A stretch of DNA of 64,000 nucleotides from a virus: IMG/VR virus record IMGVR_UViG_3300048033_001554, positions 1 to 64,000 of that record; one strand, given 5' to 3'. A model generated the notes under the pieces. That model saw only the letters and a program-made list of their open reading frames with translations, searched no databases and was not told the origin of the DNA. Shown here one piece after another: positions 7,276 through 60,167 of the stretch (positions are counted from its first letter, which is position 1; every line of letters starts with the position of its first letter). A program made the translations under genes and the position numbers.

Positions 7276-10200
7276 TATAGTGATGCCCTACTGTTAGATG
7301 CTCTTCTAGCAAGTTTTCTTACGGATGAAGTAAATGGTCTACCTTCGATACGACCTGTTCTACCGTTAATTCTTAGACCTCTTGCGAAGTACTGGTTATT
7401 TAATTCGTCTGAACCTGACCATCTGATTCGTCCACCATTTTCTGATAGGACCGAAGCATTAGCACCAATTGCAGCACCCACGTTTCTAAAGTTCAATGGC
7501 AAGGCGTTTCTGTTAACACCTGCCGATGCACCGTTGAACTGGTGAGCGATAGATTCGACCAACGATCCAAATACTAGGAAGTTAGGTCTAATTACACTAT
7601 CAATTAGTACGTTATCAATTAATTCAGTTATCATTGTTCTCTGTGGTATTGTTACTGCGACATTGTTATTTATATAGTCTCGCATGTGCTCCCAAGCTCC
7701 AACGAAGGAATCTAACAAATCAGTGTTGTTATTTCCTGCTGAGGCCCAAGCTGCGCCTGTCCAATACCAGATTTCACCTTCATAACGATTACCACTATTA
7801 TTTGTTGGAATGATATAAGCATCCCAGCGTTTCATACCTTCTAGAGCATCTCTATCTGTTCCATTTGCAACAGTACCTTTAAATTTCAGGTTACGCCAGT
7901 TAGCAAATGCAGCCGGTGGATTGAATACTGGGAATACATGCTGTGCATCAATGTTAAACAATGCACCAACAAAAGATCTTGTAGCTTTATCCGAACCTTC
8001 AAACCCAAGAGCTGGATCAATAAACCTAAAGTCGTTTGCAAGGATTTTAAGTAAGTTGCCGGCATCACGGTAAGTTTTAGGTAAGTCGATAAACTTGTAT
8101 TCTGAAGTAATAAATCTTTGAACTTCGCGTTGTAGCTTAGTTCTATTATTATCAAGAATATCTTTAGCAAATTTGAACTTTTGAGTTTCTTCCCATGCAA
8201 AGTCTGGTTCAATTGTTGGACCAAGATACTTAGGTGAGTTAAAGAATAGTGCATTGTAGAAGATCAAGCCAAGATCGTAAGCTTGTGTTACTTGTTCTTC
8301 AGCACCAACTTCTGGTCTCATTGCTTGGCCAGGATATTTACCTGCTACAACTTTACTTACGATATCACCCAACTTGCGGTAAGATTGAGCAGTTGCTTCT
8401 CTTGTATTTTCAGGAATACGTAATTCGTTATTCCAGAAGTAGAAGTCTGCATTCCAACGTGATGCTAAGTTACCACCGTAGTTCAAGTCCCAGCTCATCG
8501 CATCCAGGATATAACCTGAATCTCTACGACATTTCGCTTTGCTGTAATCTACGATTGTGAAGTTATCTGCAATAAAGTCAGTAACATCATCAGCAAGATC
8601 GTTTAAGTTAGAATCAATTTCTTCAGCAGCTGCTAATTTGTCTGCAGCAACCCAAGATGTATTTGGCTCAATAAGAGCAGGCATTGCATCTAAGCTATCT
8701 CTACGGATTGCTTCTTCAATAACACGTACCATGTCTGCAACCCATTCACCTTCAACAGATGTTGCTGGAGTTCCAGATGAATCTTGGCCAACTGCAAGTT
8801 CTTGTACGACGTTATCAACAAGATTAGCCATTGTAACGTAGAAGTCAGCTGTTTGAGTTCTTTGATCAAATGGTAATACGCTTGTTGCATTATCGAAGTA
8901 CATATTTGCACAAAGTCTTGTTGCATAGTTTGTTTCGTATTGAACGTCGTGTGATAGTGCATCAACAATAATACCAACATCTCTGCGACATTTCTCTTTA
9001 GGATAGCTGATACCTTTGTATTCAGAAGAGATAAAGTTAATCATGTTTGTTACGAGAGTTTCAAGCTCGTTGTCAACTAGATCTTTTTGATCTTTAACCA
9101 TCGCTGGCATCCAAGCCGTGTGTGGTTCAACTCTAGATGGTAAGTTATCAGGATTGTTATCGTCAGCAATATTCGCAACCATCATGCCAAGCTCTTTAGC
9201 TTCCATGGCAATAGCTCTTCTTGCTGTTAGGTTTGACATGTCTTGTACTGATGAATTAGCAGGAGATGCTGTAACCGCTTCGTTACGAATAACGTCGTGG
9301 ATTACTTCAGACATTCTAGTGAATGCTTCTCTTGTTGCATCTCTTTGATCCAATGGTAACAAGTTGGTCATGTTAACAAAGTAGATTTGAGCTGAATTCC
9401 ACATCGCCGCATTACCACCATATTGGATATCGTGGGAAATTGCATCAACCATGTAGCCAACATCTCTGCGGCATTTAACTGAGTTATACTCAAGGTAATC
9501 AAACTTATCTTGAAGATATTTGTTAATACCTGCAGCTAGCGTAGCTTTGCGTCCTTCAACTATTGCTACATCAGTCTCATAATCATAACCGGTTGCAGCT
9601 GGATCTGAAGTATTAGCTTCTTGGGCTGCTGGCATATTGATTAATGAATTTTCAGTAATAATAGTTGTTACGATGTTAATAAGATCTTGTACTTCTTGGC
9701 CTGTTGCCGCAACTACGTTACCGAATCCTACAACAGTTTGTGTTTGTGTATTACCGGCAGTAGGAGTAACTACTTGCTTAAGAACAACTCTTTCAGCAAT
9801 TGTCGCCACGTGGCTAAATACTGCTGCTGTTTCTGTTCTTTGATCAGCTGGTAAAACTGAGTTACCTTCTTCAAAGTAAAGTCTTGCCACATCTCTCATT
9901 GCAACATTAGAACCATGTCTAATATCGTATGATGCTGCATCAACTAAGAATCCAATATCTCTTTCACACTTATCTCTTTGAGCTGCAGTTAATGACCCCC
10001 ATAGTGTTGGGTAGTATAACTGGAAGTATGCTCTACCTTCGCCAGCCAAGAATGCTCTGTTAAGCTGTAAGCCGTCAGTAGCTGCGTTATCGCTGTTGCC
10101 AACGTTTGCTGTACCAAAGCTTGCATAAGTAAGACCAGTTGTGCCATTCTTCATAACATTAATGATATTATCGAATGCACCAATCGCTCTTGTTTTTGCA

Positions 10201-13200
10201 TCTCCAGTAAGTCTAGCTTCAACATCAGCTCTAATGTATTTAATACCTTCGATTGTTTCAGCTAATTGCTCGTTAATTACAACATCTGTTCCAACTGTAC
10301 CTGCACGATAAGCTCTACCCGCATATTTACTTGGGTAATCAGAACCAGTTTGAATATCACGTTTAACTGCATCTAGGATGTAGCCAACGTCTCTTTCACA
10401 TTTGCCTTCGTCATAGACAAAGTACTTGTCATTAATAAATGCAACAACTTCATCTTGAATAAAGCCTTTGTTCATCTGTAATGATTTACGAGCAAATGTT
10501 CTGCTTGGTTCAATTGCAGGTTTTGTATCTGCATCAGCTGTTGGCAATGCTTCTGGGATTTGTTGGCCAACACTCTTATCAAGCGAACCTTCGTATCCTG
10601 GAACAACCAATCTATTATCAACTGTAGCTGAAACTGTATTGAATAGTGTCTTAGCTCTTAATGCTGTAGTAGCTGTTGCTGTGTTGCCAGAGGTGATCTG
10701 AGTAGTTGTGTTACCAGCGGTTGGTGTAACCGCAGTACCTTGAACAACGTCTTCAGCGACATCTGCTAAGTGTTCGAATGCCATTCTAGTTGGCTCTCGT
10801 TGCTCGTAAGGTAAGATATTAATTGCATTTTTGAAGTAGTATTGAGCAGCATTTGCTGTAGCAGCATCGCCACCATATTCCATATCTTCAGTGATTGCAT
10901 CAATAATTAAACCAGTATCTCTGTAGCAAAGTTCGGTATCGAATCCAAGACCATTGTATTCTTCACGAATAAAGTCAATGATTTCTGTTTGATACTTAAC
11001 TGTTTCACCAGCAACTCTTTCGTACATTTCATTAATTGCAGTATCGTAACCAGTACCAACAAGTGTTGGTTCTTTAATTTCAGGAATACCAGTTCCGTAT
11101 CCTGCATTAGTGAATGTTTCTGTAAAGTTATCTTCGAGTACAATATTACCAATTGCATTGAATAAGTCAACTGCTTCGCCAGCAACATTTGGTGCAACTG
11201 AAGGTCTAATCGCATTGGCTACTGCACTTACGAATGTATGTGGTTCAGTATATGTTCCAGCGTTACCAACTTGCATTGTGAATGTCGTTGCTGTTGTTGC
11301 ATCGATACGAATTGGAGTATTGAAGTATGGGTCAGTTGCTCTTGGGTGAGAAATCTGAGTAGCAGGTGAACCACATTCTAATGTGATACCACCTTCTTCA
11401 ATTACTACATAATCGCCAACTGCTAATGTATGAGAAGCAACTGTTACTGTCATTACACCGGTTACTGGGTTGTAAGCAACGTCGGTTGGTGTTAATGCAT
11501 TAGATGCAGCGTTGAAAGTTTGAGTAGTAACGGCTTGATCAGGATTCTGAATTTCTTCTTCTCTAACAATTTGACCAACCAACTCACCAATATGTTTGTA
11601 AGCTGCTGCTGTAATTGGTTTTTCAGCTTCAGCCAATACGCCTACCGCATTATCAAAGTAAAGTCTTGCATTTTTAAGAGTTGCGGCATTTGAACCATGC
11701 TGTACATCCCAAGAAATAGCATCGATAAAGTAACCTAAGTCTCTTTCGCAATCTGCTACGTTGTATGTAAATGATGGGTAGTTAGCTGCAATCCATGCTG
11801 TAACTTCATCTTGTAAGAATGCTTTGTTAGCTTGTAATGCTTGACGAGCTTGTAACGCATGAGCTGAAACATAAGATGTACCAAAAGTAATAGTATCTGC
11901 ACTTCCGACACCGTTATTCATAATATCAATGATTTCATCAAATGCAGCATCTGCTCTTGTTTCACCAGTACCAGAAGTAATACCTTGAATCTTACCTTTT
12001 AGCCATGTAATTGCACCAACTGTTTCAGTTAGCTCATTTGCAATTACTGATTCTGTAGATGGGTTACCTGAACGGTACGCCAAACCAGCAAATACTGAGT
12101 TGACGTTTGATCCAGTTGCCATGTCTCTACGAACTGCATCTAAGATAAGACCAGTGTCTCTTGCACAAAGTTTGTCATTATAAACGAAGTAGTTATCTTT
12201 AATCCAAGCATCTACTTCATCTTGTAAGAATGTTCTATTTTCTTGTAATTTGTCTGCCGCAATGCGACCTTCACGTGTCACACCTGCTGGAAGCTTGATC
12301 AATGATCCTTCTTCAGCACTTACAAATGTATGTGTTCCGGTATAACCACCAGCATCACCAGGATTAACTGTAATAGTTGTTGCATCAACTGCAGTAATTT
12401 CAAGTGGCATCATGTAATTTGGTTCACCAATTCTTGGAGAAGAAATTTCAGTAACTACACTTGTATCTGTGTTTGCACAACTAAATACAACACTGTTTGG
12501 TTTGAACTCGATATGATCGTCGGTAGTTAAACCGTGATTTGCGCCGAGTGTAACAACCATTTCGCCATTTGCAGGATTGTAAGTTGCAGTACTTGGAGTA
12601 TGGAAAGATTCAATTTTAGCAGGATCTGTCCAGTAAATTGCATTTGCATCAATACAATCAATATTAGCACTTACGAATGTATGAGCACCAGTGTAACCAT
12701 TAGCATTTGCAACGTTGACTGTAATAGAATCAGCAGTAACTGCAGTAATTCTTACAGGTTGTCTAAATGCAGGATCAGTTGCACGTGGGTGAGAAATATT
12801 GATTGGTGTTGGATCAACATCTGATGTTGGGCAAGATAGTGTAATTGAATTATCAGCAATTGAAATCCATTTACCAACTGGCAAGTTGTGTTGTCCAATG
12901 GTAAGAGTCATATCACCACTAATTGGATCATAATCCGCATTTGAAGGAGTAAACTTACCGTCGTAAATACCAGCATCTCTAATTGCATTAGCATTAGCAC
13001 TTACAAATGTATGAGCACCTGTGTAACCACCGGCATATCCAACATTAACTATAATTGTAGTAGCTGTTTTGCCGCTGATTGTTAATGGTGTGTTAAATGC
13101 AGGATCAGTTGCACGTGGGTGAGAAATCTCAACAGGATCGCCAGCACCATCTAAGCAAGAGAATGTCATGCTTTCTTGTTCAATAATAATAGTATCACCA

Positions 13201-50131: not shown

Positions 50132-50800
50132 TTATCCTTTTTTATAAGTCGACTTAGTATCGATAGCAATAAAGTATTTCACATTGCCATCACTGCTTTT
50201 AAACTCAGAGATACCCTTCGCGCAAAGAGTAACATTATAGTCCTGAGGTAAAAGTTTAAGATTATCAGTTTTTACAATAATCTTAAATTCATCAGATGTA
50301 GTGCCAATTTCAACACCATAATCATCTGAGTTGCTGTTATTGCTATCAATGGCTTTAAGGAAGATTTTACCATCTTCACCAACGAAAGCAATCTCACCAA
50401 ATTGGAGAACGCCGGCTGCTTTGATAACAGACTGCATATCATCCCATGAAACATCAACTTCAACATCAGTTGTTGGTAGCTGAATTTCTTTCTTTGGAGC
50501 TGCATGGATCATAGAAACATCAGCATAAACATACTTTGTACGCTGTTTACCATCTCTAATCATAAAGTATTTATCTTCAAATTCTACATCTGGATCCTTA
50601 TAAAGGCTAAGGATTGACAAGAAACGAGATAGATCGTAAACACAAGCCTGGGCTGGAATTTGATCGGGAATTGTTGCTGACGCAACCAATGTTTTTTCTG
50701 GTGTTACAGTTTTAAGAACATTACCTTCCTCCATAAGAATGGATTTGTTAATGGTTGAAAAACTTTTAAGAATCGTAAGAGTACGTTCACTAAATTTCAT
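50132..50800 (-). CDS. gp45: Sliding clamp gp45
   Basis: MKFSERTLTILKSFSTINKSI...VYDLSRFL...NLKLLPQDYNV motifs. Confidence 0.93.
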   Translation of the reverse strand: MKFSERTLTILKSFSTINKSILMEEGNVLKTVTPEKTLVASATIPDQIPAQACVYDLSRFLSILSLYKDPDVEFEDKYFMIRDGKQRTKYVYADVSMIHAAPKKEIQLPTTDVEVDVSWDDMQSVIKAAGVLQFGEIAFVGEDGKIFLKAIDSNNSNSDDYGVEIGTTSDEFKIIVKTDNLKLLPQDYNVTLCAKGISEFKSSDGNVKYFIAIDTKSTYKKG

Positions 50801-50866: not shown

Positions 50867-51721
50867 CTACTTTTTGTAGGTTTTTTTGCGGCTAGCTTGG
50901 TTTGCCGTTGCAGACATTCCAAGCTGTCCCATGTCGGCCAAAGATCCTTTGAAGATATAAGAACCAATATGATGTAGATTCATCCACGGGCACATCCATA
51001 CTTGCATCCCAGCTTTACGAGCCCACTTACAAAAGAAATAATCTTCAGACAAGTAACGCTTTGTTTCTGGATCAATGACGCAGTCAAAGAAAGCCGTAAT
51101 TTCTCTACTACCATCAAAGTTATCAGTACGAACATGATCTGGCTTATAGCTTAATTCAGGATAAGCTTCTTTGAATTTTTCAAGAGTAGCTCGTGGAATA
51201 AGCATAAATCCTGTACCTGCTTCAGCTACTTCAAGCGGCTCAGCCACATTAAAAGATGCTTGCTTTTTAACAGGATTAAATACGTAATCGGCTGTATATT
51301 TTTCAAGATCAAAAGGATTATCTTTTCCTTTACCTTGCTGAGCAGCTTGAGAAACTTTTTCCCATGCAATTGTTTTCTTAGGATATGGTCCTGTTACGAT
51401 GTTATACTTATCAGGATCTTGGAGGTTAACTGCCATCAATCCTAAAATATCTCTTGGATTAAAACCAATGTCTGCATCAATAAACAATAGATGAGTACAA
51501 TCAGAACGAAGGAATTCATCTACAATATAGTTACGTGCTCGTTGGATCAAGCTTTCATTAAACAAAAAGTAAAACTGTACTTGAATGCCATTAGCACCAG
51601 CCATTAAGGCCAAATCAGTGCAAGCTTTTGTATATGTACCGGCCGCTTGTGCGCCATACATTGGCGTACCAATAAAGATTTTATGCTTTCTTAGCTCATC
51701 GATACTTAATTCGATTTTCAT
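50867..51721 (-). CDS. GT-A fold glycosyltransferase-like protein
   Basis: IGTPMYG, ESLIQRARN, LLFIDADI (DxD), GTGFMLI and YLSEDYFFC motifs. Confidence 0.7.
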   Translation of the reverse strand: MKIELSIDELRKHKIFIGTPMYGAQAAGTYTKACTDLALMAGANGIQVQFYFLFNESLIQRARNYIVDEFLRSDCTHLLFIDADIGFNPRDILGLMAVNLQDPDKYNIVTGPYPKKTIAWEKVSQAAQQGKGKDNPFDLEKYTADYVFNPVKKQASFNVAEPLEVAEAGTGFMLIPRATLEKFKEAYPELSYKPDHVRTDNFDGSREITAFFDCVIDPETKRYLSEDYFFCKWARKAGMQVWMCPWMNLHHIGSYIFKGSLADMGQLGMSATANQASRKKTYKK

Positions 51722-52362
51722 ATTTCTACTTGCTCCAAATCTGCTTCTGCTCTTACAATGGCCTGCAGCCGCAGAATATCTGCTGCAACATCATGTTTAG
51801 CGTCGTGTGCGTTAAAATTATAATTCCATTTTTCAATGTCTGATACAGGAATGAATCCGTTGTTGCCGCCAGGAACATTAAAATCAAATTTAGCATCAAT
51901 AAATGTTCGTGTATCTCTTACCAAGTAATACTTTAAGAAAGAACTAAGTAGATCAGCCTTATTAGCATTATGTGCAAGACGATCTAATACTACCGGATCA
52001 AACGAATTTGATCTTGACCACCAGTAATCAATCTTACCAGCAGCACGTAGATAGTTAATTAAACCTTCAATAAATTGCGGTGCTTTCATATCATCACTTG
52101 AAGGCTTTAAGTTTCTTCTAAGTTCAGCTGGTTTATCCAACCACCATTGCAAATCACTTTGGCTATACTTACATCCATGGTTTTCCATTTGATCTTTAAT
52201 ATCAAACTTAGCATGCTCCATACCAAGAACTAACTCTTTAAAAGAGTATGGGTTATCACAAAACCTATCCCACTCAAAAGTCGTGTATGCGACATCAATA
52301 GCTGGAATTTCACGAGAGCATCCGCCAATAGTTTCAAAATCAAGAATAAAATGTGTGCTCAT
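51718..52362 (-). CDS. dexA: 3-prime to 5-prime exonuclease, DEDDh (DexA-like)
   Basis: ILDFET, WSRSNSFD, RDTRT and HDAKHD motifs. Confidence 0.75.
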   Translation of the reverse strand: MSTHFILDFETIGGCSREIPAIDVAYTTFEWDRFCDNPYSFKELVLGMEHAKFDIKDQMENHGCKYSQSDLQWWLDKPAELRRNLKPSSDDMKAPQFIEGLINYLRAAGKIDYWWSRSNSFDPVVLDRLAHNANKADLLSSFLKYYLVRDTRTFIDAKFDFNVPGGNNGFIPVSDIEKWNYNFNAHDAKHDVAADILRLQAIVRAEADLEQVEI

Positions 52363-53564
52363 AAAAATGCCTCTAATGTATTACCGCGTTCAATATAATC
52401 TGCCTTCTGTCTATGATTATACTGCAAAATGTAGTCTGTGTCAACCATTACTAACTCATTATTCAAATATTTTTTAACTTCAGTTGCCATGTCAGTAGCA
52501 GTTTGAACTGGTACGTTTTGACAAATATGGTTAGCAACCTTAGGACCAGCATTTACGAGTTCAAAATCTTCGGGCAAACCCATGATTGTCATAGCTTCTC
52601 GATAGTTAATAAAGCGATCTTCATCTGGATGGGCAAGCATAAGAGGATAGTGGCCAACAAAAGCACCAATGCGATCCTTAGGAATGGTTACACCACGGCG
52701 CATAATACTTTTACCTGATTCGAGTTTTGCATGTTTGTATTTGCATTTCTCTACTTCACGATCAAAACCATTTTCAGCCATCCAATCAGCAACTTGCAAA
52801 TAGCTATATCCTTGTTGTTCAATGTAACTGTAAACACAAGCGCCACGAGCTGATGTTGGTTCAATCAAAGCAGCATGTTCTTTATGAGTACGACCACCGT
52901 GAATATGTTCTAAGATGAAACGGTAATAAGGATTGTCTGTTGGTTTCTTTTTATGGTTAATTACTTCAGTTTGGAAGTTAGATGTAACACCTCGGATTAC
53001 CTCTTCGATGGGCGTATGAGGCTTGTTATAGTAGTTTAAGAGAGGAGTTTTAGTACCTTTCCAGAAAAAGTAGAATGATCTCTCGCGTACCTGTGGTGCA
53101 CCGTGCAATAGAGATTTAGTTCTATATACAGACATTGTATATCCATTTTCTCTACCAATTTCTTTTAACTGGGTACGAACTTTAGCTCCAATTTTACCAG
53201 CAAACCCCGGTGCATTCTCTCCCCAAAACACTTTTGGTTTATACTCGCCAAGGATATATTTAGCGGTTTCTACCATCCACTTGTTGTTTTCATTGTCATC
53301 ACCATATCCCATAGACATAGTTGATAGACCGGCACATGGGCAAACTGAAGATACAACATCAGCTCTTTCATTGGTTGGTGGAGCCATTCCTTTATCTAAA
53401 ACATAGTAGGGAATTTCGTTATTATAGTAATTTAGGATGTGACTATCATTAGAAGCAAAAGCCTCATATGACATAAAATGCAATGGCTTAGTGCCAAAAG
53501 CATTTTGTGATCCAATTGTTTCACCGCCAATTAGTGGTACAATGGCTGCATGTGTTATGCTCAT
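52359..53564 (-). CDS. Cytosine-C5 DNA methyltransferase-fold protein with atypical SAM-binding motifs
   Basis: Motif IV CPCAGLS, VI GENAPG, VIII PQVRER and IX REAMTIMGLPEDF; motif I reads IVPLIGG. Confidence 0.8.
   Translation of the reverse strand: MSITHAAIVPLIGGETIGSQNAFGTKPLHFMSYEAFASNDSHILNYYNNEIPYYVLDKGMAPPTNERADVVSSVCPCAGLSTMSMGYGDDNENNKWMVETAKYILGEYKPKVFWGENAPGFAGKIGAKVRTQLKEIGRENGYTMSVYRTKSLLHGAPQVRERSFYFFWKGTKTPLLNYYNKPHTPIEEVIRGVTSNFQTEVINHKKKPTDNPYYRFILEHIHGGRTHKEHAALIEPTSARGACVYSYIEQQGYSYLQVADWMAENGFDREVEKCKYKHAKLESGKSIMRRGVTIPKDRIGAFVGHYPLMLAHPDEDRFINYREAMTIMGLPEDFELVNAGPKVANHICQNVPVQTATDMATEVKKYLNNELVMVDTDYILQYNHRQKADYIERGNTLEAFL
52416..52444 (-). promoter_or_regulatory. Internal consensus sigma70 promoter
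   Basis: Perfect TTGACA-N17-TATAAT inside the 3-prime end of the methyltransferase-like gene. Confidence 0.7.
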
Positions 53565-54028
53565 AATTTACCTTTCAAGCTCGCGTCAGCAACACGCTTT
53601 CTCAAATCAGTTGATGAGAAAGAATGTTTTCGTTTATTGTAATGGATCGGACAAAGACCTTTTGCGGTGTGCTCAGTATCACGGTATTCTTCACCAACAA
53701 TACGGACATGAGGCTGAATAGTTAGCACCATATCAACAATTTCTTGTTCTGTTGTAAAAGGAATTACCTCGTCAACAAATCGACAAGCCGATAGTTGAAC
53801 ATATCTTTCAAAGGGAGTTTGAACGGGTTTTTGTTTGCTGTCTGGACGGTCTACTGTTGGATCTACTAGCAGACCGCAAATGAGGTAGTCACAAAGGCTT
53901 TTAGCTTCTTGTAACATTACAATATGACCTGCATGTAGCAAATCAAAAGTAGAACAAGTAAAACCAATTTTAACTTCATCAGCTGGTTTACCCAAACGCT
54001 GAGCAATCTCAGAGATATTCGTAAACAT
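53561..54028 (-). CDS. Cytidylyltransferase (TagD/RfaE-like HxGH nucleotidyltransferase)
   Basis: STFDLLHAGH, ER..QL..CRFVDEV and RKHSFSSTDLR motifs. Confidence 0.88.
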   Translation of the reverse strand: MFTNISEIAQRLGKPADEVKIGFTCSTFDLLHAGHIVMLQEAKSLCDYLICGLLVDPTVDRPDSKQKPVQTPFERYVQLSACRFVDEVIPFTTEQEIVDMVLTIQPHVRIVGEEYRDTEHTAKGLCPIHYNKRKHSFSSTDLRKRVADASLKGKL

Positions 54029-55046
54029 TATTCATACACTCCATAATAAAATCTTTATTAGGGTGGTATTTGTACACCCTAGTAATTTCAGCACCAACCA
54101 ACGCTGACAGCATACCTTTATTTATATCATTTGCTAGCGCCATATATTTAAAAGACTTAACAACTTTATCCATATCATATTTGTTAATCAATAGACTTGC
54201 AATAAATTTAGCAGCATCCAACTCAGTGCAACCAAACACACCACAAATAGGATCAATCAGCGTAACGTTGCAATCTTTAAAGAGCATATTTTTAATGCCA
54301 AAATCACCGTGAGAAAATGTTCTTTTTAAATCAAACTTATAAAGCTTAAAGGCATTATCACGGAAAATCTCATGGCCACCGTGATTATATGCGTTCTCAG
54401 CATGCTGTTCAATTCGATGAATATAAGATACGTAGCTTAATTCGTCTTTTACTTTAAGTGATTTAAGCTTATCCAATTGAGTTTGAATAATGCCAAGCGC
54501 CATGTGAATATTATTTTCAAAGTAGTTTTCATCGTTATCAATATAATCCATTGTAATCGTTTCGCCAACAACACGGTGTACTACTGGAACTTTAACGTTA
54601 ACAATTTCAGCCTGTTCAAACCATTCACGAGTAGCATGAGCTGCTGAATCTTGCTTATGGACTACTTTACCATCTGTATAAATTTCAGTACCTGACAAAC
54701 CACCTTCAAGCTCGCGAATATCTACCTCAAGGAAGTCCTCAGGCATAATACCTTTATCGTCGATGTAATAAGCTGCCAAAGGTTTATCAAACGAAAGCAT
54801 ATTATATTTTACATTATACTTTTTAAGCCAAGCTACAATGCTTGACTCATATTTTTCTCGAGCTTCTTCACGAGTATTACATGAAATAGAACCACGAGCT
54901 GTGAAGATATCAATCTGCCAACCTTGATCGTATAAGTGATTAAGTTTATTAATCAAAACTTCATTTGGTTGAGCAGAATCGAACTTACGACCTTGATGGA
55001 ACGCTAGTGTGTCGTCAAAGTCAACAACGATTCGTTTATGATACAT
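54009..55046 (-). CDS. HAD phosphatase fused to an APH/choline-kinase-like phosphotransferase
   Basis: N-terminal VVDFDDTL, FTARG, KP..AYYIDDK; C-terminal GGLSG, HGDFGIKNML, LIDP. Confidence 0.8.
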   Translation of the reverse strand: MYHKRIVVDFDDTLAFHQGRKFDSAQPNEVLINKLNHLYDQGWQIDIFTARGSISCNTREEAREKYESSIVAWLKKYNVKYNMLSFDKPLAAYYIDDKGIMPEDFLEVDIRELEGGLSGTEIYTDGKVVHKQDSAAHATREWFEQAEIVNVKVPVVHRVVGETITMDYIDNDENYFENNIHMALGIIQTQLDKLKSLKVKDELSYVSYIHRIEQHAENAYNHGGHEIFRDNAFKLYKFDLKRTFSHGDFGIKNMLFKDCNVTLIDPICGVFGCTELDAAKFIASLLINKYDMDKVVKSFKYMALANDINKGMLSALVGAEITRVYKYHPNKDFIMECMNNVYEYL

Positions 55047-56470
55047 TAGAAAAATCCTTCAAGAGTAGATCCAACTTGCTTAGGCTCTTTAATTTCATTT
55101 TGTCTTCCATCAACAAGAGTATAAGCCTTTTCAAGTAGTACACTGCCGGGAGTTGAAACAATAATTTCCCCGCGTTCACGACGTTCTCGAGCACTTGGAA
55201 AGTAACTCGAAATCCTATCTATAAAATCTACTTTATCATGTCTTTTACCTTTTGTCAACACAAAATCTAAGAATTTTGGACCAAGGACTTCAATATCATT
55301 AAACTTGTAAATTAGTTCACGGCATGCTTCAGTACGAGCTTTCCATTCCTTAGGATTATTAGCAATACGGTTCAATTCAGCAGCAAGTTCTTCTTCCTTA
55401 GTAGCTTCTGAAATAAGTGGACCATAATATTCTCCCCACTTTTTACCTTCAGGAGATACAGCGTTTTCAGCAAAGTGACGGCTAATAACAGGTAGAGACA
55501 ATAGGAATGATTCAATTACTGTATATTCCATGCGGTGGCCATACTCTTTTGGATCGCCAAGACGGTAACCACACCATGCAGCCATAGAAGAACCAAGTTC
55601 ACCCATGCCAAAATCATACTTATAACCATCGTACGCAGTAATTGTAGTACCGGTCTTTTCTTTCTCTTTACCTGGGAGGTAATGTTCGCCAGCTGAGTTT
55701 GTTCCAATGAACCTAATTTTTGGCTGATAAGATTTATGGTATGGAGCTGGATCTGTTGCAAGAGTTTTAGAATCAGGATCTCCAATAGAAGAAATAGAAC
55801 GTTCACAACCCATCAAGGTAAGATCCCATTCATTTTTCAAAAATGGTTCAATACGGCAAATCATTCCTGGATCTTTAAGTGTTGACATACGACCCATGTA
55901 CATAAAGTGTTTACGACGTTCTTCAAGGTCAGCACGATATTGATCGTAGTCTCCTGTACGAACCCAAATAGGATTCTCAAGTAATCTACCTTCAAGGCCA
56001 AGATCAGTTGCTAGATAACACTCTTGTGAATACCCTTCAAATGACTGGGTAATACCAATGTCTGCCAAAGCAAACAACTCACCAGCACCGGTTTGGCGAT
56101 TAATAGTATTTTTAGTAATAGCATGATCGTGTACTACAATAATTGGATCATTAATCTCTTCTACAAATTCACGGAATCGATCAATGTATTTCCCATTCTT
56201 GCGAGTTGGAAATGAATGCACAATAGCAATATCGCAAGTATTAACCGCATCAACCACCGGTTGTACATCTTTTACTTCTTGGTTGCTTTCAACACGAAGC
56301 ACTTCACCGTGCCATGAAACGTTTTGTGCTCGACCAAATTTTTGTTTGTTATCAAAATCAATAACCATTGTTTCATGGCCTTGAGATACTAGCCAATCTT
56401 CGAAGATATTAGCGCCTTTAGTAACACCACAACCTTCAATGCCTTTTCCAAAGATAAAAGCAACCTTCAT
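55046..56470 (-). CDS. a-gt: DNA alpha-glucosyltransferase-like (GT-B) enzyme
   Basis: N-terminus FIFGKGIEGCGVTK..DWLVSQGHE matches the T4 AGT start as I recall it (FMARGLEGCGVTK..DWFIKNGHE); also GR...KDP and EYT.IE. Confidence 0.8.
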   Translation of the reverse strand: MKVAFIFGKGIEGCGVTKGANIFEDWLVSQGHETMVIDFDNKQKFGRAQNVSWHGEVLRVESNQEVKDVQPVVDAVNTCDIAIVHSFPTRKNGKYIDRFREFVEEINDPIIVVHDHAITKNTINRQTGAGELFALADIGITQSFEGYSQECYLATDLGLEGRLLENPIWVRTGDYDQYRADLEERRKHFMYMGRMSTLKDPGMICRIEPFLKNEWDLTLMGCERSISSIGDPDSKTLATDPAPYHKSYQPKIRFIGTNSAGEHYLPGKEKEKTGTTITAYDGYKYDFGMGELGSSMAAWCGYRLGDPKEYGHRMEYTVIESFLLSLPVISRHFAENAVSPEGKKWGEYYGPLISEATKEEELAAELNRIANNPKEWKARTEACRELIYKFNDIEVLGPKFLDFVLTKGKRHDKVDFIDRISSYFPSARERRERGEIIVSTPGSVLLEKAYTLVDGRQNEIKEPKQVGSTLEGFF

Positions 56471-56474
56471 AATA

Positions 56475-56804
56475 TTATCCTTCTACAAATTGTTCCCATT
56501 TGTTTGGCATACCATCGAACAATTCAGCATCCTCGAGAGGTTCTTTTTGTTCATTGATGTTTGGCCAAACCTGAGAGTATTTAGTATTTCTTTCCATCCA
56601 TATAATCTTATCTGGTTCTGGCAAATCTACGTCAGCAACAATAGCACTAACAGGACATTCAGGAACGCAAACTCCACAGTCAATACATTCATCAGGATTA
56701 ATTACTAAAGTATCTTCACCTTCATAAAAACAATCAACTGGACATACAGCAACGCAATCGGTGTGTTTACACTTAACACAATTATCCGTTACCAGATAAG
56801 TCAT
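56475..56804 (-). CDS. fdxA: 7Fe ferredoxin (FdxA type)
   Basis: [46 protein letters not shown]; ATG at 56804 has a GGAGG RBS. Confidence 0.93.
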
Positions 56805-56805
56805 A

Positions 56806-57372
56806 TTATACCTCCAAAAGAGTGATTTGTACACCACTTTCTTTAAACATTAAAGAACTTTGTTCTTCCCAAATTTCTTGCCAATTACCTTTGTCTGTTT
56901 TAGTACTAGGAATTACTACACGCTTAATGCCAGCTTGGATAATGCATTTAGTACAAGACGGACAAATAGGTAATCCATAGACATACAATGTAGCATCTTT
57001 AACGGCAACACCATTATATAGAGCGTTCATTAATGCATTCATTTCAGCATGGATGATACGAGGATATTTTTCCTCCCTACTATTTAGCCTTTCTGGAGTA
57101 TCCGAAATACCACGAGGAAAGCCATTGTAGCCGGTGGCTAGAATACGTCGTTCATCATTAACAATTACAGCACCAATTTTACTTGATGGATCTTTACTCC
57201 AACTTGCAATAAGCTCAGCCTGCTCCATGAAACGTCGATCCCATTTAGTAATGTTATCTTCTACTTCTTTATTCATACGTCGCATGTAGTCTTCGTAAAA
57301 TTCGTATTCGCCCATGTACTCTTCTTTCTCTTGAAGTTCCATTACATATTGTCCAATTTTACTCATAATCAT
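56806..57372 (-). CDS. cd: dCMP deaminase
   Basis: [26 protein letters not shown] and PICPSC zinc motifs. Confidence 0.92.
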
Positions 57373-58046
57373 TTTACTAAGTGGAAATGGCGGCTATACA
57401 CGTGCAGGTTCATTACTTGCCAGATTAGATCACCTTTCGTAAGTTCATAACCGAGATCTGCTTCATTTAGATTATCAATAGCACGATCCATAAGATGTTG
57501 TGCCCAAGCATAATCATTCTTATAGCCAAAGACTACATCATTTGAACGCATTTGCGATACCATATGCAGTTTACCATCACGAATATAAAACGTTTGAGCG
57601 TTGGTACAGATGAAATCAGACTTACCACCTTCATTGAATTCAACCCAGATAGATGGACGGTTATAGATCATTTGAGCACGGCGGCTATCTGGATTTGCAA
57701 TCAATTCATCAATTGCGTTGTAATATTGATTATAAAACTTTGGTGAGTCTACAAGATGCCCGTAGTTTGAGTTGATATTACCATGTGCATCAGCTGCATA
57801 TTTCCAGGCGGCAGGCGGTTCTTTGTCTTTGCCATGGATATCGTTAATGTTAGTACTTTGGCTTTCATACCAAGCCAATTCAGAATCGATATAAGATTGT
57901 ACTGGAGTACCAAAGATAGCAGGTTCATCAGCAATAAAGCTTGCGCCTAGAATTTCAATTGTTTTAGCACCAGTTTTGTCAGTTGTAAATCGTTCAGCTT
58001 TAAGTTCATTAATAAAGTACTGACGAATATCAGTTACAGTTTTCAT
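57369..58046 (-). CDS. gp42: dCMP hydroxymethylase (T4 gp42 homologue)
   Basis: DKTGAKTIEILGASFIADEP, INSNYG, SDFICTN, MRSNDVVFGYKNDYAW and LHVYSRHF closely follow T4 gp42, including the dCMP-specifying Asp in KNDY. Confidence 0.9.
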   Translation of the reverse strand: MKTVTDIRQYFINELKAERFTTDKTGAKTIEILGASFIADEPAIFGTPVQSYIDSELAWYESQSTNINDIHGKDKEPPAAWKYAADAHGNINSNYGHLVDSPKFYNQYYNAIDELIANPDSRRAQMIYNRPSIWVEFNEGGKSDFICTNAQTFYIRDGKLHMVSQMRSNDVVFGYKNDYAWAQHLMDRAIDNLNEADLGYELTKGDLIWQVMNLHVYSRHFHLVK

Positions 58047-58372
58047 TCCATTTCCTCCGGTTTAAAGCGATCATCAACGTCAGTGCCTTGCATTTCGCAC
58101 ATAACTAAAATCATAAGTTGTGTAAGAGCATGGTGTGTATGAGGAAGACCACTTTCGGGATCAGTATCCTCGCCACTAAACCAAGCCAATAGATGACGTT
58201 GAATAGAACCATAGTGACGTGAATAAGGAAACTTATTTAGATCCTTACGCCAATTGTTTTCACCATACTTTTGAGCACCAAAAGCATAAACTTGCGAAGC
58301 CGCAAGGATTACTTCTGGTGGAACAAGGTTAACAGGTGGTTTGCCATTATCAAATTTCATTATTTTCTCCAA
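58043..58372 (-). CDS. DUF5664-like dNTP diphosphohydrolase
   Basis: KFDNGKP..LVP, GAQKYGENNW, RHLLAW..GEDTDPESGLPH..HA motifs. Confidence 0.8.
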   Translation of the reverse strand: MEKIMKFDNGKPPVNLVPPEVILAASQVYAFGAQKYGENNWRKDLNKFPYSRHYGSIQRHLLAWFSGEDTDPESGLPHTHHALTQLMILVMCEMQGTDVDDRFKPEEME

Positions 58373-59181
58373 GTTGAAATATCTTTAGAATTATCATATA
58401 TGATTTTAGATTGTTCTGGAGTCATTATAAACTGCTTAAGACAGCTTGTCAACGGATAATTCCGCAACTTGTTGCCTTTGTTATTATAAACGTAATTATA
58501 GCAAGTTTTATGATTAACACAAAGATAAGCTACAGCAAGATCGGTTTCCTTATGAGGAACTCTAATAAAGAAAAGTATGTCAACGCCATCAAGTTTTTTC
58601 CATTGAGATTGATCAATCCAAAAACCTTGCTCTCTTTGGTTCAACTGAATTGTTTTAAGCTCGTAAGTAAGCTCGCCAATCATGCCATCTTTTTTGCTGT
58701 CATACCAGTCTTCAGAACGTTCGGCTCCGTAAAACTTTTCTATAGCCATTTCGCCGATGTCACCAATTTTTACCGCGGTGGTTTCTTTTGGCATTGACGG
58801 TGTATCTACAAATCCTACTACAGGAATAGTACCCTTTTCTGTAACTTCAAATTTCTTACTATAGAGCTTAAACAAACCATTGCGATGCATTAGTAATGTT
58901 GGAAACCACGGATATCCACTTGAGTTCTTAGCAATTACATTTTTTACTGTAGAATGGCGTTGAATATCAGACCAGCTAGAATATTCTGCGACTATTTTGC
59001 CTTTTTGCAAAACTCGCAAAGGCTTATTAGACATTTTCCAGTATTTATCCTGCCCACGGTGATAGTGAAAAATATTAGAAACTTCCGCCGCGGTCAACGG
59101 AAGTTCCAGTTCAAAGTATGCTGTTTCAACAAGATCTTCAAGCATTTTTTGTGTTCCAGTTTTTTTCAAATTGAGTTTCAA
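58360..59181 (-). CDS. Hypothetical protein with possible C-terminal PD-(D/E)xK nuclease domain (start uncertain)
   Basis: GDIGE...KDG...YELKT arrangement in the C-terminal half. Confidence 0.5.
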   Translation of the reverse strand: MKLNLKKTGTQKMLEDLVETAYFELELPLTAAEVSNIFHYHRGQDKYWKMSNKPLRVLQKGKIVAEYSSWSDIQRHSTVKNVIAKNSSGYPWFPTLLMHRNGLFKLYSKKFEVTEKGTIPVVGFVDTPSMPKETTAVKIGDIGEMAIEKFYGAERSEDWYDSKKDGMIGELTYELKTIQLNQREQGFWIDQSQWKKLDGVDILFFIRVPHKETDLAVAYLCVNHKTCYNYVYNNKGNKLRNYPLTSCLKQFIMTPEQSKIIYDNSKDISTWRK

Positions 59182-59437: not shown

Positions 59438-59466
59438 TTTATAACACATTTAAAAACGTTTGTCAA
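59438..59466 (-). promoter_or_regulatory. Sigma70-like early promoter
   Basis: TTGACA-N17-TATAAA with extended TG. Confidence 0.6.
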
Positions 59467-60110
59467 CCGCAAAGTTCATTTTGCCATTCTTTAGGCAGGT
59501 TGTTAATAGCTTTTTTCCAACAACGAAGAATGCCGTTTACAAGAGTATCGTAAGCTTCTTCGTAAGAACGTTCAATAGCGTTAGAAGCTTTCTCTTTAGT
59601 CCAGTTGATTTGTAAACAATTAGCAATATTAGCATTTTCGCCGTAATTAGCAATCTGCTTAGCACCACGTACCATTACATTAGAAGAGTCTTTTTTATCT
59701 ACAGACAAAAACCAGTAGTCTTTATTTGGAATATCTGCTTTGTTTTCGTTTATCAAATCAACATACTTTTTCCATCCCATCGCAAATGGAATTTGATCAA
59801 AATCTAGATCAGTAAGAGCATAAACAAAACCACCTTTAGAAGTAGCGTTATCAGAACTACCAATAGATGTTTTGATATTAACAGGATGAGTAGTTACACC
59901 ATCATAGTCGATCACAAACATATCAGCCGAGTGGCGTGGCTTTTCAGTATCGATATGTTTACTGAGTGTAGGATGTGATTGAAGAAAACGAATTACTGAA
60001 CCTTCATCCTGAAGAGAAGCTACGCGACCTTCACCTTCAATTTTTTCAGCAATTTTGATTTTTTCTTCTTTAAGAGCTGCTACAACGTCAATTAAGATTT
60101 GTGGTGTCAT
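59463..60110 (-). CDS. Restriction-endonuclease-like hypothetical protein
   Basis: E...ADMFV...PVNIKTS resembles a PD-(D/E/N)xK active site; ATG at 60110 chosen from promoter and RBS position. Confidence 0.5.
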   Translation of the reverse strand: MTPQILIDVVAALKEEKIKIAEKIEGEGRVASLQDEGSVIRFLQSHPTLSKHIDTEKPRHSADMFVIDYDGVTTHPVNIKTSIGSSDNATSKGGFVYALTDLDFDQIPFAMGWKKYVDLINENKADIPNKDYWFLSVDKKDSSNVMVRGAKQIANYGENANIANCLQINWTKEKASNAIERSYEEAYDTLVNGILRCWKKAINNLPKEWQNELCG

Positions 60111-60139
60111 AATATAATATTCCTTTTGTTGATAAATCA

Positions 60140-60167
60140 ATTATACCATACAATCAGAGTTTGTCAA
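60140..60167 (-). promoter_or_regulatory. Sigma70-like early promoter
   Basis: TTGACA-N16-TATAAT with extended TG. Confidence 0.7.

Follow-up and report, generated by a model that had tools for sequence, protein, structure and literature searches.

Which modified base is made by a bacteriophage that carries, in a single run of genes, both an enzyme for 5-hydroxymethylcytosine (hmC) and enzymes for an activated sugar? The question is raised by ten abutting or overlapping open reading frames (ORFs) at positions 50867-58372 of a 64,000-nucleotide window, which is the whole stretch of DNA analysed and forms part of an 84,353-bp IMG/VR virus record (IMGVR_UViG_3300048033_001554) rated about 39% complete. 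All ten lie on the minus strand, as does the gp45 gene at which the cluster ends, and the source is an uncultured aquatic T4-like phage. The answer considered likely is a pre-replicative hmC pathway of T4 type, coupled to a DNA glycosyltransferase and to genes with which the phage would make the sugar nucleotide itself, whose product would be glycosyl-hmC and probably heptosyl-hmC. A glycosyl-hmC with a sugar other than glucose would be the likeliest product because an hmC synthase, a kinase/phosphatase/nucleotidyltransferase route and a transferase resembling T4 alpha-glucosyltransferase (AGT) are all encoded. An initial annotation of the locus had proposed that hmC is joined to a self-made donor, giving a non-glucose adduct. 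Homology, synteny and a published reconstitution support this proposal, although the sugar itself is a prediction, with heptose favoured over pentose.

The identity of the base is indicated by the synthase, a 225-residue dCMP hydroxymethylase of the gp42 type (57369-58046). It matches T4 deoxycytidylate hydroxymethylase (PDB 1b49/1b5e) over residues 3-224 with an E value of 4.6e-67, and PF00303 at E 3.5e-15. The two proteins align end to end, with the catalytic Cys of FICTN opposite FMCTN and an active-site stretch almost identical to that of T4. Identity is 52% to T4 gp42 and 54.5% to the gene-42 products of Klebsiella T4-like phages. For homologs of thymidylate synthase (TS), residues numbered after ThyA are described as diagnostic by Lee et al.: N177D denotes cytosine specificity, L143D/E a product other than methyl, and D169N is the mark of the newly found 5-hydroxy-dCMP synthases (PMC13326640). 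The window enzyme, with the motifs SDFICTN and MRSNDVVFGYKNDYAW, has Asp at L143, retains Asp at D169 and has Asp at N177. It reads SDFIC...RSND...KND, in the same register as T4 (Asp/Asp/Asp, or D/D/D). RB69 gp48, a 5-hydroxycytosine (5hoC) synthase which served as the control, has RSQN at the corresponding place of the alignment and is 26% identical to the window enzyme. Because the synthase has the T4 signature, unlike that of RB69, the predicted base is hmC and not 5hoC. With Asp169 retained, a 5-hydroxycytosine reading of the RB69 type is ruled out.

Two neighbouring genes would shape the nucleotide pool. A 109-residue MazG/MazZ-like all-alpha dNTP pyrophosphohydrolase (58043-58372) matches phrog_801 (E 3.2e-35) and the dATP/dGTP diphosphohydrolase N-terminal domain PF18909 (E 1.3e-29), which we take to be the former DUF5664. 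It would be a dCTPase analogue, supplying dCMP and excluding dCTP. The second is a dCMP deaminase of 188 residues (56806-57372; PF00383, E 7.4e-24; phrog_174, E 3.6e-49). No second ThyA or ThyX was found in the 84-kb record, which covers about 39% of the genome.

Activation of the sugar would fall to two further genes. The larger encodes a 345-residue fusion (54009-55046) of an HAD phosphatase (residues ~1-115) and an APH/choline-kinase-like kinase (residues ~120-345); Pfam gave no match for this protein, and the assignment comes from profile comparison with the PDB. In a profile of the fusion family, built from 14 relatives, residues ~5-115 align with two HAD proteins, 9iqw (E 2e-15) and 1xpj (E 3.8e-14). 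The kinase part has a single PDB match, methylthioribose kinase 2olc, at residues 223-291 (E 0.0021). Methylthioribose kinase is an APH-family kinase that phosphorylates an anomeric hydroxyl, at C1 of a pentose. The motifs DFDDT (DxDxT) and HGDFGxxN...IDP are invariant in the 14 relatives, and the kinase carries the APH catalytic loop. The HAD half is 29.7% identical to RB69p051 over 101 residues (E 4.4e-11), and 1xpj is listed as the top fold match for the HAD phosphatases of RB69 and DLP3 (PMC13326640, Table 1). Homology of the kinase domain to the AfhE-like kinase of RB69 or to gp311 of phage G was considered and rejected: only the catalytic loop aligns, with hhalign probabilities of 9.7% and 42%, and the alignment with RB69p052 spans 42 columns. 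From these motifs and matches, the fusion would combine an anomeric sugar-phosphate kinase with a distal phosphatase. Its homologs number 230 in a large protein collection; some are from Tara samples, and several lie on contigs 170-211 kb long.

The other gene encodes a HIGH-family, cytidylyltransferase-like nucleotidyltransferase of 155 residues (53561-54028) with a HAGH motif (PF01467, E 9.6e-13). Its best model is TIGR02199 (rfaE domain II, heptose-1-phosphate adenylyltransferase; E 9.4e-21), and TagD also matches (E 3.5e-13), both at scores below the cut-offs. The PDB matches are 3elb, 1coz, 5x9q and 3glv, with ethanolamine-phosphate cytidylyltransferase near TagD, and there is no significant match to RB69p053. 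The protein is probably a sugar-1-phosphate nucleotidyltransferase. Kinase, phosphatase and nucleotidyltransferase, in that order, follow the logic of ADP-heptose synthesis. The Afh route to UDP-arabinose is described as obeying the same logic (PMC13326640).

The sugar would reach the DNA through a GT-B glycosyltransferase of 474 residues (55046-56470). It matches phrog_2888 over residues 1-392 (E 2.2e-31) and PF11440 with 29.4 bits against a cut-off of 25, the latter match being N-terminal only (model positions 1-131 of 355). An extension of about 80 residues at the C-terminus ends in TLEGFF. The AlphaFold model has a predicted local distance difference test score (pLDDT) of 70 and a predicted template modelling score (pTM) of 0.76, its C-terminal Rossmann domain being of low confidence. 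In a Foldseek search of the PDB with this model, T4 AGT chains take all of the first nine places (E 9.7e-17 to 4.9e-15; TM 0.75-0.80 on the target), the best match other than AGT is BshA (E 1.8e-10), and other GT-B enzymes are about six orders of magnitude weaker. Sequence identity to T4 AGT is 18-20%. By its predicted fold, then, the transferase is an AGT-like GT-B DNA transferase whose nearest solved relative is T4 AGT. The idea in the initial annotation that the donor might be a CDP-polyol fits poorly with such an enzyme.

The association of these genes extends well beyond the window. A profile-guided scan of IMG/VR confirmed 137 relatives of the fusion, from which the best 80 loci were kept (the related loci), and linkage was counted over those with enough flanking DNA (with room). 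The nucleotidyltransferase is the fusion's neighbour in all 69 loci with room, the hmC-type synthase accompanies the fusion in 46 of 47, and a homolog of the window's AGT-like gene is present in 37 of 64. Among the synthases of 63 related loci, 57 have the full D..ND..D signature, two show the readable part of it, four are cut by the locus end and none has the RB69 form. Of 47 loci with room, 23 have the PF18909 pyrophosphatase immediately ahead of the synthase and 28 have the deaminase. Five loci lacking the AGT homolog were inspected (L053, L064, L070, L083 and L089), four of which have an ORF of 413-425 residues beside the module, in the place of AGT; two of the three such ORFs scanned give sub-threshold matches to a GT-B family of Pfam (Glyco_trans_1_2). 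Among phage records, 386 have some match to the fusion, and a single one, an uncultured faecal scaffold, has it at full length.

The related loci also differ in what surrounds this core. Sugar-tailoring genes are swapped at the same spot (L036 4007-5789, L012 10581-11399, L039 7682-8143, L013 7913-8602), those swapped in being UDP-glucose/GDP-mannose dehydrogenase, NAD-dependent epimerase/dehydratase and GNAT genes, and one relative has a second DNA methyltransferase (phrog_799). The swaps imply that the glycan differs between close phages. Between fusion and nucleotidyltransferase, several loci carry an ORF of 305 residues (L013 11007-11924, L053 11022-11939, L064 11011-11928) that the window lacks. 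This ORF has no PHROG family and no Pfam family above threshold, its one faint match being at E 0.0074.

Comparable sets are found in other phage lineages. In a human-faecal phage scaffold outside the T4-like phages, which encodes DnaG and a PolIII-alpha replicase (MT837767.1, L007; 3352-7552), dUTPase_2-like and thymidylate-kinase-like genes are accompanied by an HAD-kinase fusion (29% identity), a CTP-transferase (45% identity) and a D/D/D TS homolog. The cultured Pseudoalteromonas phage vB_Psh_XG4 (PP712099.1, L089; 100-6580) has, in a row, a D/D/D TS homolog, an AfhF-like HAD gene, an NTP-transferase/APH fusion of AfhE architecture, two GT-B-like genes and a gene resembling C5-cytosine methyltransferases (C5-MTase-like); the record itself is unannotated. 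A parallel set lies within 16 kb of the jumbo Bacillus phage G (NC_023719.1 219303-234494, L086). It comprises gp301 (C5-MTase-like), gp306 and gp313 (AGT-like), gp309 (nucleotidyltransferase), gp310 (HAD), gp311 (APH-type catalytic loop), gp317 (dCMP deaminase) and gp319 (D/D/D TS homolog).

A plausible pathway can be laid out from these parts. The MazG-like pyrophosphatase would convert dCTP to dCMP, from which the gp42-type enzyme would yield 5-hydroxymethyl-dCMP, with the deaminase diverting some dCMP to dUMP. Kinases from the host or from other loci would then produce hm-dCTP, to be incorporated by the polymerase. For the donor, the APH-like kinase half would phosphorylate the anomeric carbon of a host sugar phosphate, most likely D-glycero-D-manno-heptose 7-phosphate, with a pentose 5-phosphate as second choice; the HAD half would strip the distal phosphate and the HIGH-type nucleotidyltransferase would form the nucleoside diphosphate (NDP)-sugar. 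Finally, the AGT-like GT-B enzyme, which may be held at the replisome through a C-terminal clamp-binding peptide, would move the sugar onto the hydroxymethyl group of hmC in duplex DNA. The resulting glycosyl-hmC would shield the DNA from restriction and CRISPR nucleases.

The closest published system is contig 53, a metavirome contig studied by Pyle, Lund, O'Toole and Saleh (10.1101/2023.12.21.572611; cited by PMC12619734 as Cell Rep 2024;43:114631). It is described as encoding a bifunctional HAD/APH enzyme, a CTP-transferase and a GT-B DNA transferase, all three of them essential in E. coli for the formation of mono-heptosyl (449 amu) and di-heptosyl (641 amu) 5hmC. Like the window, this subclass III hypermodification cluster has the HAD/APH fusion, the cytidylyltransferase and the GT-B gene as neighbours, uses 5hmC as acceptor and includes a C5-methyltransferase. 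The two differ in the timing of hmC synthesis: contig 53 is described as making hmC after replication, through a C5-methyltransferase and a TET-like dioxygenase, whereas the window would do so before replication through its gp42-type synthase. In the metagenome survey of the same work, GT-B matches are reported as linked to ThyS more often than to dioxygenases, and their neighbours include dCMP deaminase, gp45/clamp, methyltransferases and APH phosphotransferases (10.1101/2023.12.21.572611).

Two further systems share other portions of the scheme. With the glucosyl-hmC pathway of T4 (gp56, gp42, cd, alpha-GT and beta-GT), the window has in common a gp42-type enzyme (52% identity), a dCMP deaminase and a transferase of AGT fold near gp45. 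T4, in contrast, uses host UDP-glucose and has neither donor-synthesis genes nor a C5-MTase-like gene, and the window's pyrophosphatase belongs to another family (PF18909). RB69, DLP3 and HY126 have the Afh pathway, which resembles the window in a phage-made NDP-sugar produced by a kinase, an HAD phosphatase and a nucleotidyltransferase, in the homologous HAD and in its GT-B DNA transferases (PMC13326640). In T4-like relatives it occupies the same variable slot beside uvsX as the module. Unlike the window, Afh acts on 5-hydroxycytosine, made by a flavin-dependent D169N synthase, and its phages also encode an arabinose-5-phosphate isomerase (PMC13326640). Moreover, the Afh kinase is fused to a MurU-like nucleotidyltransferase, whereas that of the window is fused to the HAD domain and its nucleotidyltransferase is a separate HIGH-family protein.

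The pathway cannot be called new in the sense of the initial annotation. The same three-enzyme design has already been reconstituted in E. coli (10.1101/2023.12.21.572611), and self-made NDP-sugars are reported for RB69, DLP3 and HY126 (PMC13326640). The window would join a T4-type pre-replicative hmC route to a kit of HAD/APH fusion, cytidylyltransferase and GT-B transferase of the published kind. Literature from 2022 on heptose, 5-hydroxymethylcytosine and phage DNA modification was searched, and none among the matches listed treats a gp42-type phage with this module. If the proposal is true, hmC bearing a heptosyl-type or other non-glucose group would commonly protect the DNA of the abundant, uncultured T4-like phages of aquatic habitats, and would not be a curiosity of a few metavirome contigs. 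Such bases bear on restriction and CRISPR evasion, on targeting by type IV restriction and on sequencing bias against these phages. Being in culture, XG4 is ready to serve in the laboratory as a model both of glycosyl-hmC built with the phage's own donor and of the C5-MTase-like gene.

The same enzymes might instead make an NDP-pentose, arabinose-like and derived as in Afh from arabinose 5-phosphate or ribose 5-phosphate, so that the product would be pentosyl-hmC. This is judged unlikely. Gram-negative hosts produce arabinose 5-phosphate for Kdo synthesis, which speaks for it, as do the best PDB match of the HAD domain (9iqw, E 2e-15) and its 30% identity to RB69p051, the sole PDB match of the kinase being an enzyme that acts on C1 of a pentose, and the combination in XG4 of an hmC-type synthase with an AfhE-like NTP-transferase/APH fusion. 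However, the window's nucleotidyltransferase belongs to the HIGH/cytidylyltransferase family and not to the MurU-like family of AfhE, the 84-kb record (~39% complete) has no arabinose-5-phosphate isomerase, and the only set of HAD/APH, CTP-transferase and GT-B described as reconstituted gave heptose (10.1101/2023.12.21.572611). It is less probable still, and on the whole improbable, that the AGT-like enzyme glucosylates hmC from host UDP-glucose as in T4, leaving the fusion and the nucleotidyltransferase to serve a second DNA sugar, virion proteins or host surface glycans. The nearest solved relative of the transferase does use UDP-glucose, and T4-like cyanophages such as P-SSM2 hold separate HAD, kinase and nucleotidyltransferase genes among their sugar-modifying genes, and the 12 kb inspected include no hmC synthase. 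In the window, by contrast, the fusion and the nucleotidyltransferase lie between the DNA transferase and the C5-MTase-like gene with overlapping reading frames; an hmC-type synthase goes with the donor genes in 46 of the 47 loci with room and in three other phage lineages; and in the published set they are reported as essential for the DNA adduct (10.1101/2023.12.21.572611).

A post-replicative origin of hmC would assign the base to the C5-MTase-like enzyme and a 5-methylpyrimidine dioxygenase, as in methyltransferase/5-methylpyrimidine dioxygenase (MT/5mYOX) clusters, and would leave the TS homolog for nucleotide supply only. In its favour, the C5-MTase-like gene is tightly linked to the window module, and the contig 53 set is described as sitting in an MT/5mYOX cluster (10.1101/2023.12.21.572611). 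The TS homolog, however, has the full gp42 signature and is 52-54% identical to T4-type enzymes, and the scanned ORFs of related loci include no dioxygenase match, their recurrent 305-residue ORF having no family; this reading is therefore given very little credence. A Tet_JBP search of the 84-kb record also gave no match but is uninformative here, since none was obtained in 14 control genomes either.

Several observations weigh against a heptosyl-hmC product made along the T4-type pre-replicative route, or against the confidence placed in it. The pathway in this lineage is known from genes alone, and the window is likened to contig 53 by domain architecture alone, the GT of contig 53 being described as resembling T4 beta-GT while that of the window resembles T4 alpha-GT and has a clamp-binding-like tail. 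The AGT-like enzyme could still take host UDP-glucose. The scores of the nucleotidyltransferase fall well short of the equivalog cut-offs and name neither nucleotide nor sugar, the kinase domain has no Pfam match and aligns with RB69p052 and phage G gp311 only at the catalytic loop, and the HAD domain resembles arabinose-pathway phosphatases as much as those of GmhB type, which makes a pentose possible. No sugar isomerase (SIS, PF01380) was detected in the 84-kb record, about 39% of the genome, with a control that was positive in 14 of 14 genomes; the sugar substrate must therefore come from the host or from genes outside the record. Many of the 80 related loci are near-duplicates, so that the linkage counts overstate independence. 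Finally, relatives carry UDP-glucose dehydrogenase, epimerase/dehydratase or GNAT genes, and the glycan varies between phages.

The module includes one more enzyme, of C5-cytosine-methyltransferase fold (52359-53564; 401 residues, C-terminus TLEAFL), which matches PF00145 from model position 61 on (E 1.9e-19). Its structure model (pLDDT 82, pTM 0.83) retrieves M.HhaI (5.7e-11), M.HaeIII, MET1 and CmoX (8yf3) in Foldseek. The catalytic motifs PCA (IV), EN (VI) and QxRxR (VIII), together with QNxPV, do not vary among 12 relatives with 32-91% identity to the window protein. Motif I is PLIGG, likewise invariant, as against FxGxG in enzymes that use S-adenosylmethionine (SAM), and motif X reads CQNVP where the SAM form is GN[A/S]V, with an invariant Gln opposite the Asn of M.HaeIII and Arg350 of CmoX. 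By alignment with M.HhaI the motif II acid would be E34, and this column varies among relatives. Neither Pfam nor PDB alignments reach residues 1-58.

For a cofactor other than SAM in such an enzyme there is a precedent in the CmoX/CmoA/CmoY 5-carboxymethylcytosine system of Synechococcus phage S-B43, in which a motif X residue is described as setting the transferred group, Arg350 of CmoX selecting carboxy-SAM (PMC12783734). The window enzyme is not a CmoX carboxymethyltransferase: it has VCPC where CmoX has SPPC and Gln in place of Arg350, and the incomplete 84-kb record has no match to CmoA (TIGR00740).

By linkage, the C5-MTase-like enzyme belongs to the module. Its gene adjoins the module in 45 of 46 related loci with room; it is missing from L036 despite room, and also from L004, where uvsX takes its position. 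Cultured-phage homologs are confined to eight records (XG4, five S-TIM5-type cyanophage and two phage G), and in each of the three genomes checked, one from each group, a TS homolog has Asp at N177. The gene thus accompanies cytosine-specific TS homologs in four unrelated lineages, namely the aquatic T4-like phages, XG4, phage G and the S-TIM5 cyanophages. In S-TIM5 (NC_019516.2) the only TS-family gene (5775-6611) has Asp at N177 and Cys at L143 and may therefore use dCMP; the C5-MTase-like homolog (8995-10212; 32% identity) is 2.4 kb away.

C5-methyltransferases reportedly act on hmC, in work associated with Liutkeviciute and Klimasauskas. A rather doubtful proposal is that the C5-MTase-like enzyme performs a real hypermodification step and not ordinary SAM-dependent methylation. 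It draws on the retained motifs for covalent catalysis, the altered motif X, a divergent N-terminus in the cofactor-binding region and the clamp-binding-like tail, in an enzyme that would meet DNA whose cytosines already bear a C5 substituent. The enzyme might transfer a group other than methyl; it might act on hmC, its Cys attacking C6 and the exocyclic carbon undergoing substitution; or it might modify any cytosines left bare behind the fork. If true, its activity would yield a mixed or further elaborated base not yet described. Its function is directly testable because the cultured phage XG4 carries the gene and because the gene tracks cytosine-specific TS homologs across four lineages.

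The AGT-like and C5-MTase-like families share a further feature. A conserved C-terminal peptide, (S/T)LExF(F/L/M), follows variable linkers in both (37 and 62 homologs, respectively), taking the form (S/T)LExFF in the AGT-like family; in the window it is encoded at 55046-55120 and 52359-52380. The tail resembles a sliding-clamp-binding motif, and the fusion, nucleotidyltransferase, exonuclease and GT-A-like protein have no such tail. The AGT of T4 is said to bind gp45, a finding reportedly made by Sommer and colleagues in 2004. A predicted complex of the AGT-like tail (residues 430-474) with one gp45 chain has a median score of 0.53, against 0.00 for the best of three controls. Of 80 solved complexes 58 pass the mark applied to this score, as do 2 of 110 mismatched pairs; among those that pass, only 7 of the solved complexes but both mismatches score 0.60 or less. 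At least 33% of contacts agree between runs and the partner pLDDT is at least 39; solved clamp-peptide complexes exist, so a pass may reflect likeness to them. As the model faintly suggests, gp45 is a possible docking site for the AGT-like and C5-MTase-like enzymes.

Two genes at the gp45 end of the cluster appear to be neighbours of the pathway. A DEDD-type 3'-5' exonuclease of 214 residues (51718-52362) matches PF16473 (E 3.7e-10) and phrog_255, annotated as exonuclease (E 2.8e-23), and is probably not a pathway part. The adjacent 284-residue protein (50867-51721), possibly of GT-A fold, belongs to phrog_1574 (E 7.3e-59), which has no assigned function. The GT-A call is based on sub-threshold matches to Anp1 (E 0.0042) and GT21 (E 0.0089) and on neighbouring Atlas clusters, where Anp1 or Glycos_transf_2 is carried by 32-33% of the proteins. 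Homologs with 46-52% identity occur in cultured T4-like phages of Stenotrophomonas (DLP_6), Caulobacter (Cr30) and Sinorhizobium (phiM12-type). Of the 27 related loci with at least 7 kb downstream, 15 have both this gene and the exonuclease gene, always together with gp45, and both are absent where the module abuts uvsX (L064, L083, L004 and L036). A role for either in the pathway has no support, as both track gp45 and not the module.

Nor did the ferredoxin prove to be part of the pathway. This FdxA-type 7Fe protein (56475-56837; NF045490, 149.3 bits against a cut-off of 135) is encoded in four of 47 related loci with room and in six of 80 overall, a distribution that rules it out as a core component and makes it an accessory. 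The NF045490 match begins at residue 12 of the listed ORF, and the true start is probably about 11 codons after the listed GTG; the 32-nt overlap with the deaminase gene is therefore probably not real.

The cluster as a whole is as compact as first described: its ten genes, their coordinates, their strand and their overlaps were all confirmed, as was its end at gp45. Most neighbouring ORFs overlap, by 1-20 nt, with 4 nt at 58043/58046, 57369/57372, 53561/53564, 52359/52362 and 51718/51721, 1 nt at 55046 and 20 nt at 54009-54028. Gaps of 4 nt (56470/56475) and of 66 nt (ahead of gp45) interrupt the series. Nine of the ten family assignments hold, that of the GT-A protein being weak, with sub-threshold matches only. 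The gp45 sliding clamp (50132-50800; PF09116, E 1.4e-13) bounds the cluster and opens a T4-type replication block that continues with gp44, gp62 and RegA. No near-identical DNA turned up when the 7.5-kb region was compared by Megablast with 50,697 phage records, and the nearest cultured clamp-loader genes are those of Methylophilales phage Melnitz (54.5% identity).

At the other edge, an ORF of 273 residues (58360-59181) overlaps the beginning of the cluster; neither Pfam nor PHROG assigns it a family, and none of the 80 related loci has a homolog. Directly upstream of the cluster lies an ORF of 225 residues (59463-60140) that matches the endonuclease family phrog_3978 (E 2.8e-19), and a GIY-YIG/NUMOD3 homing endonuclease is found at the corresponding edge of the related locus L036.

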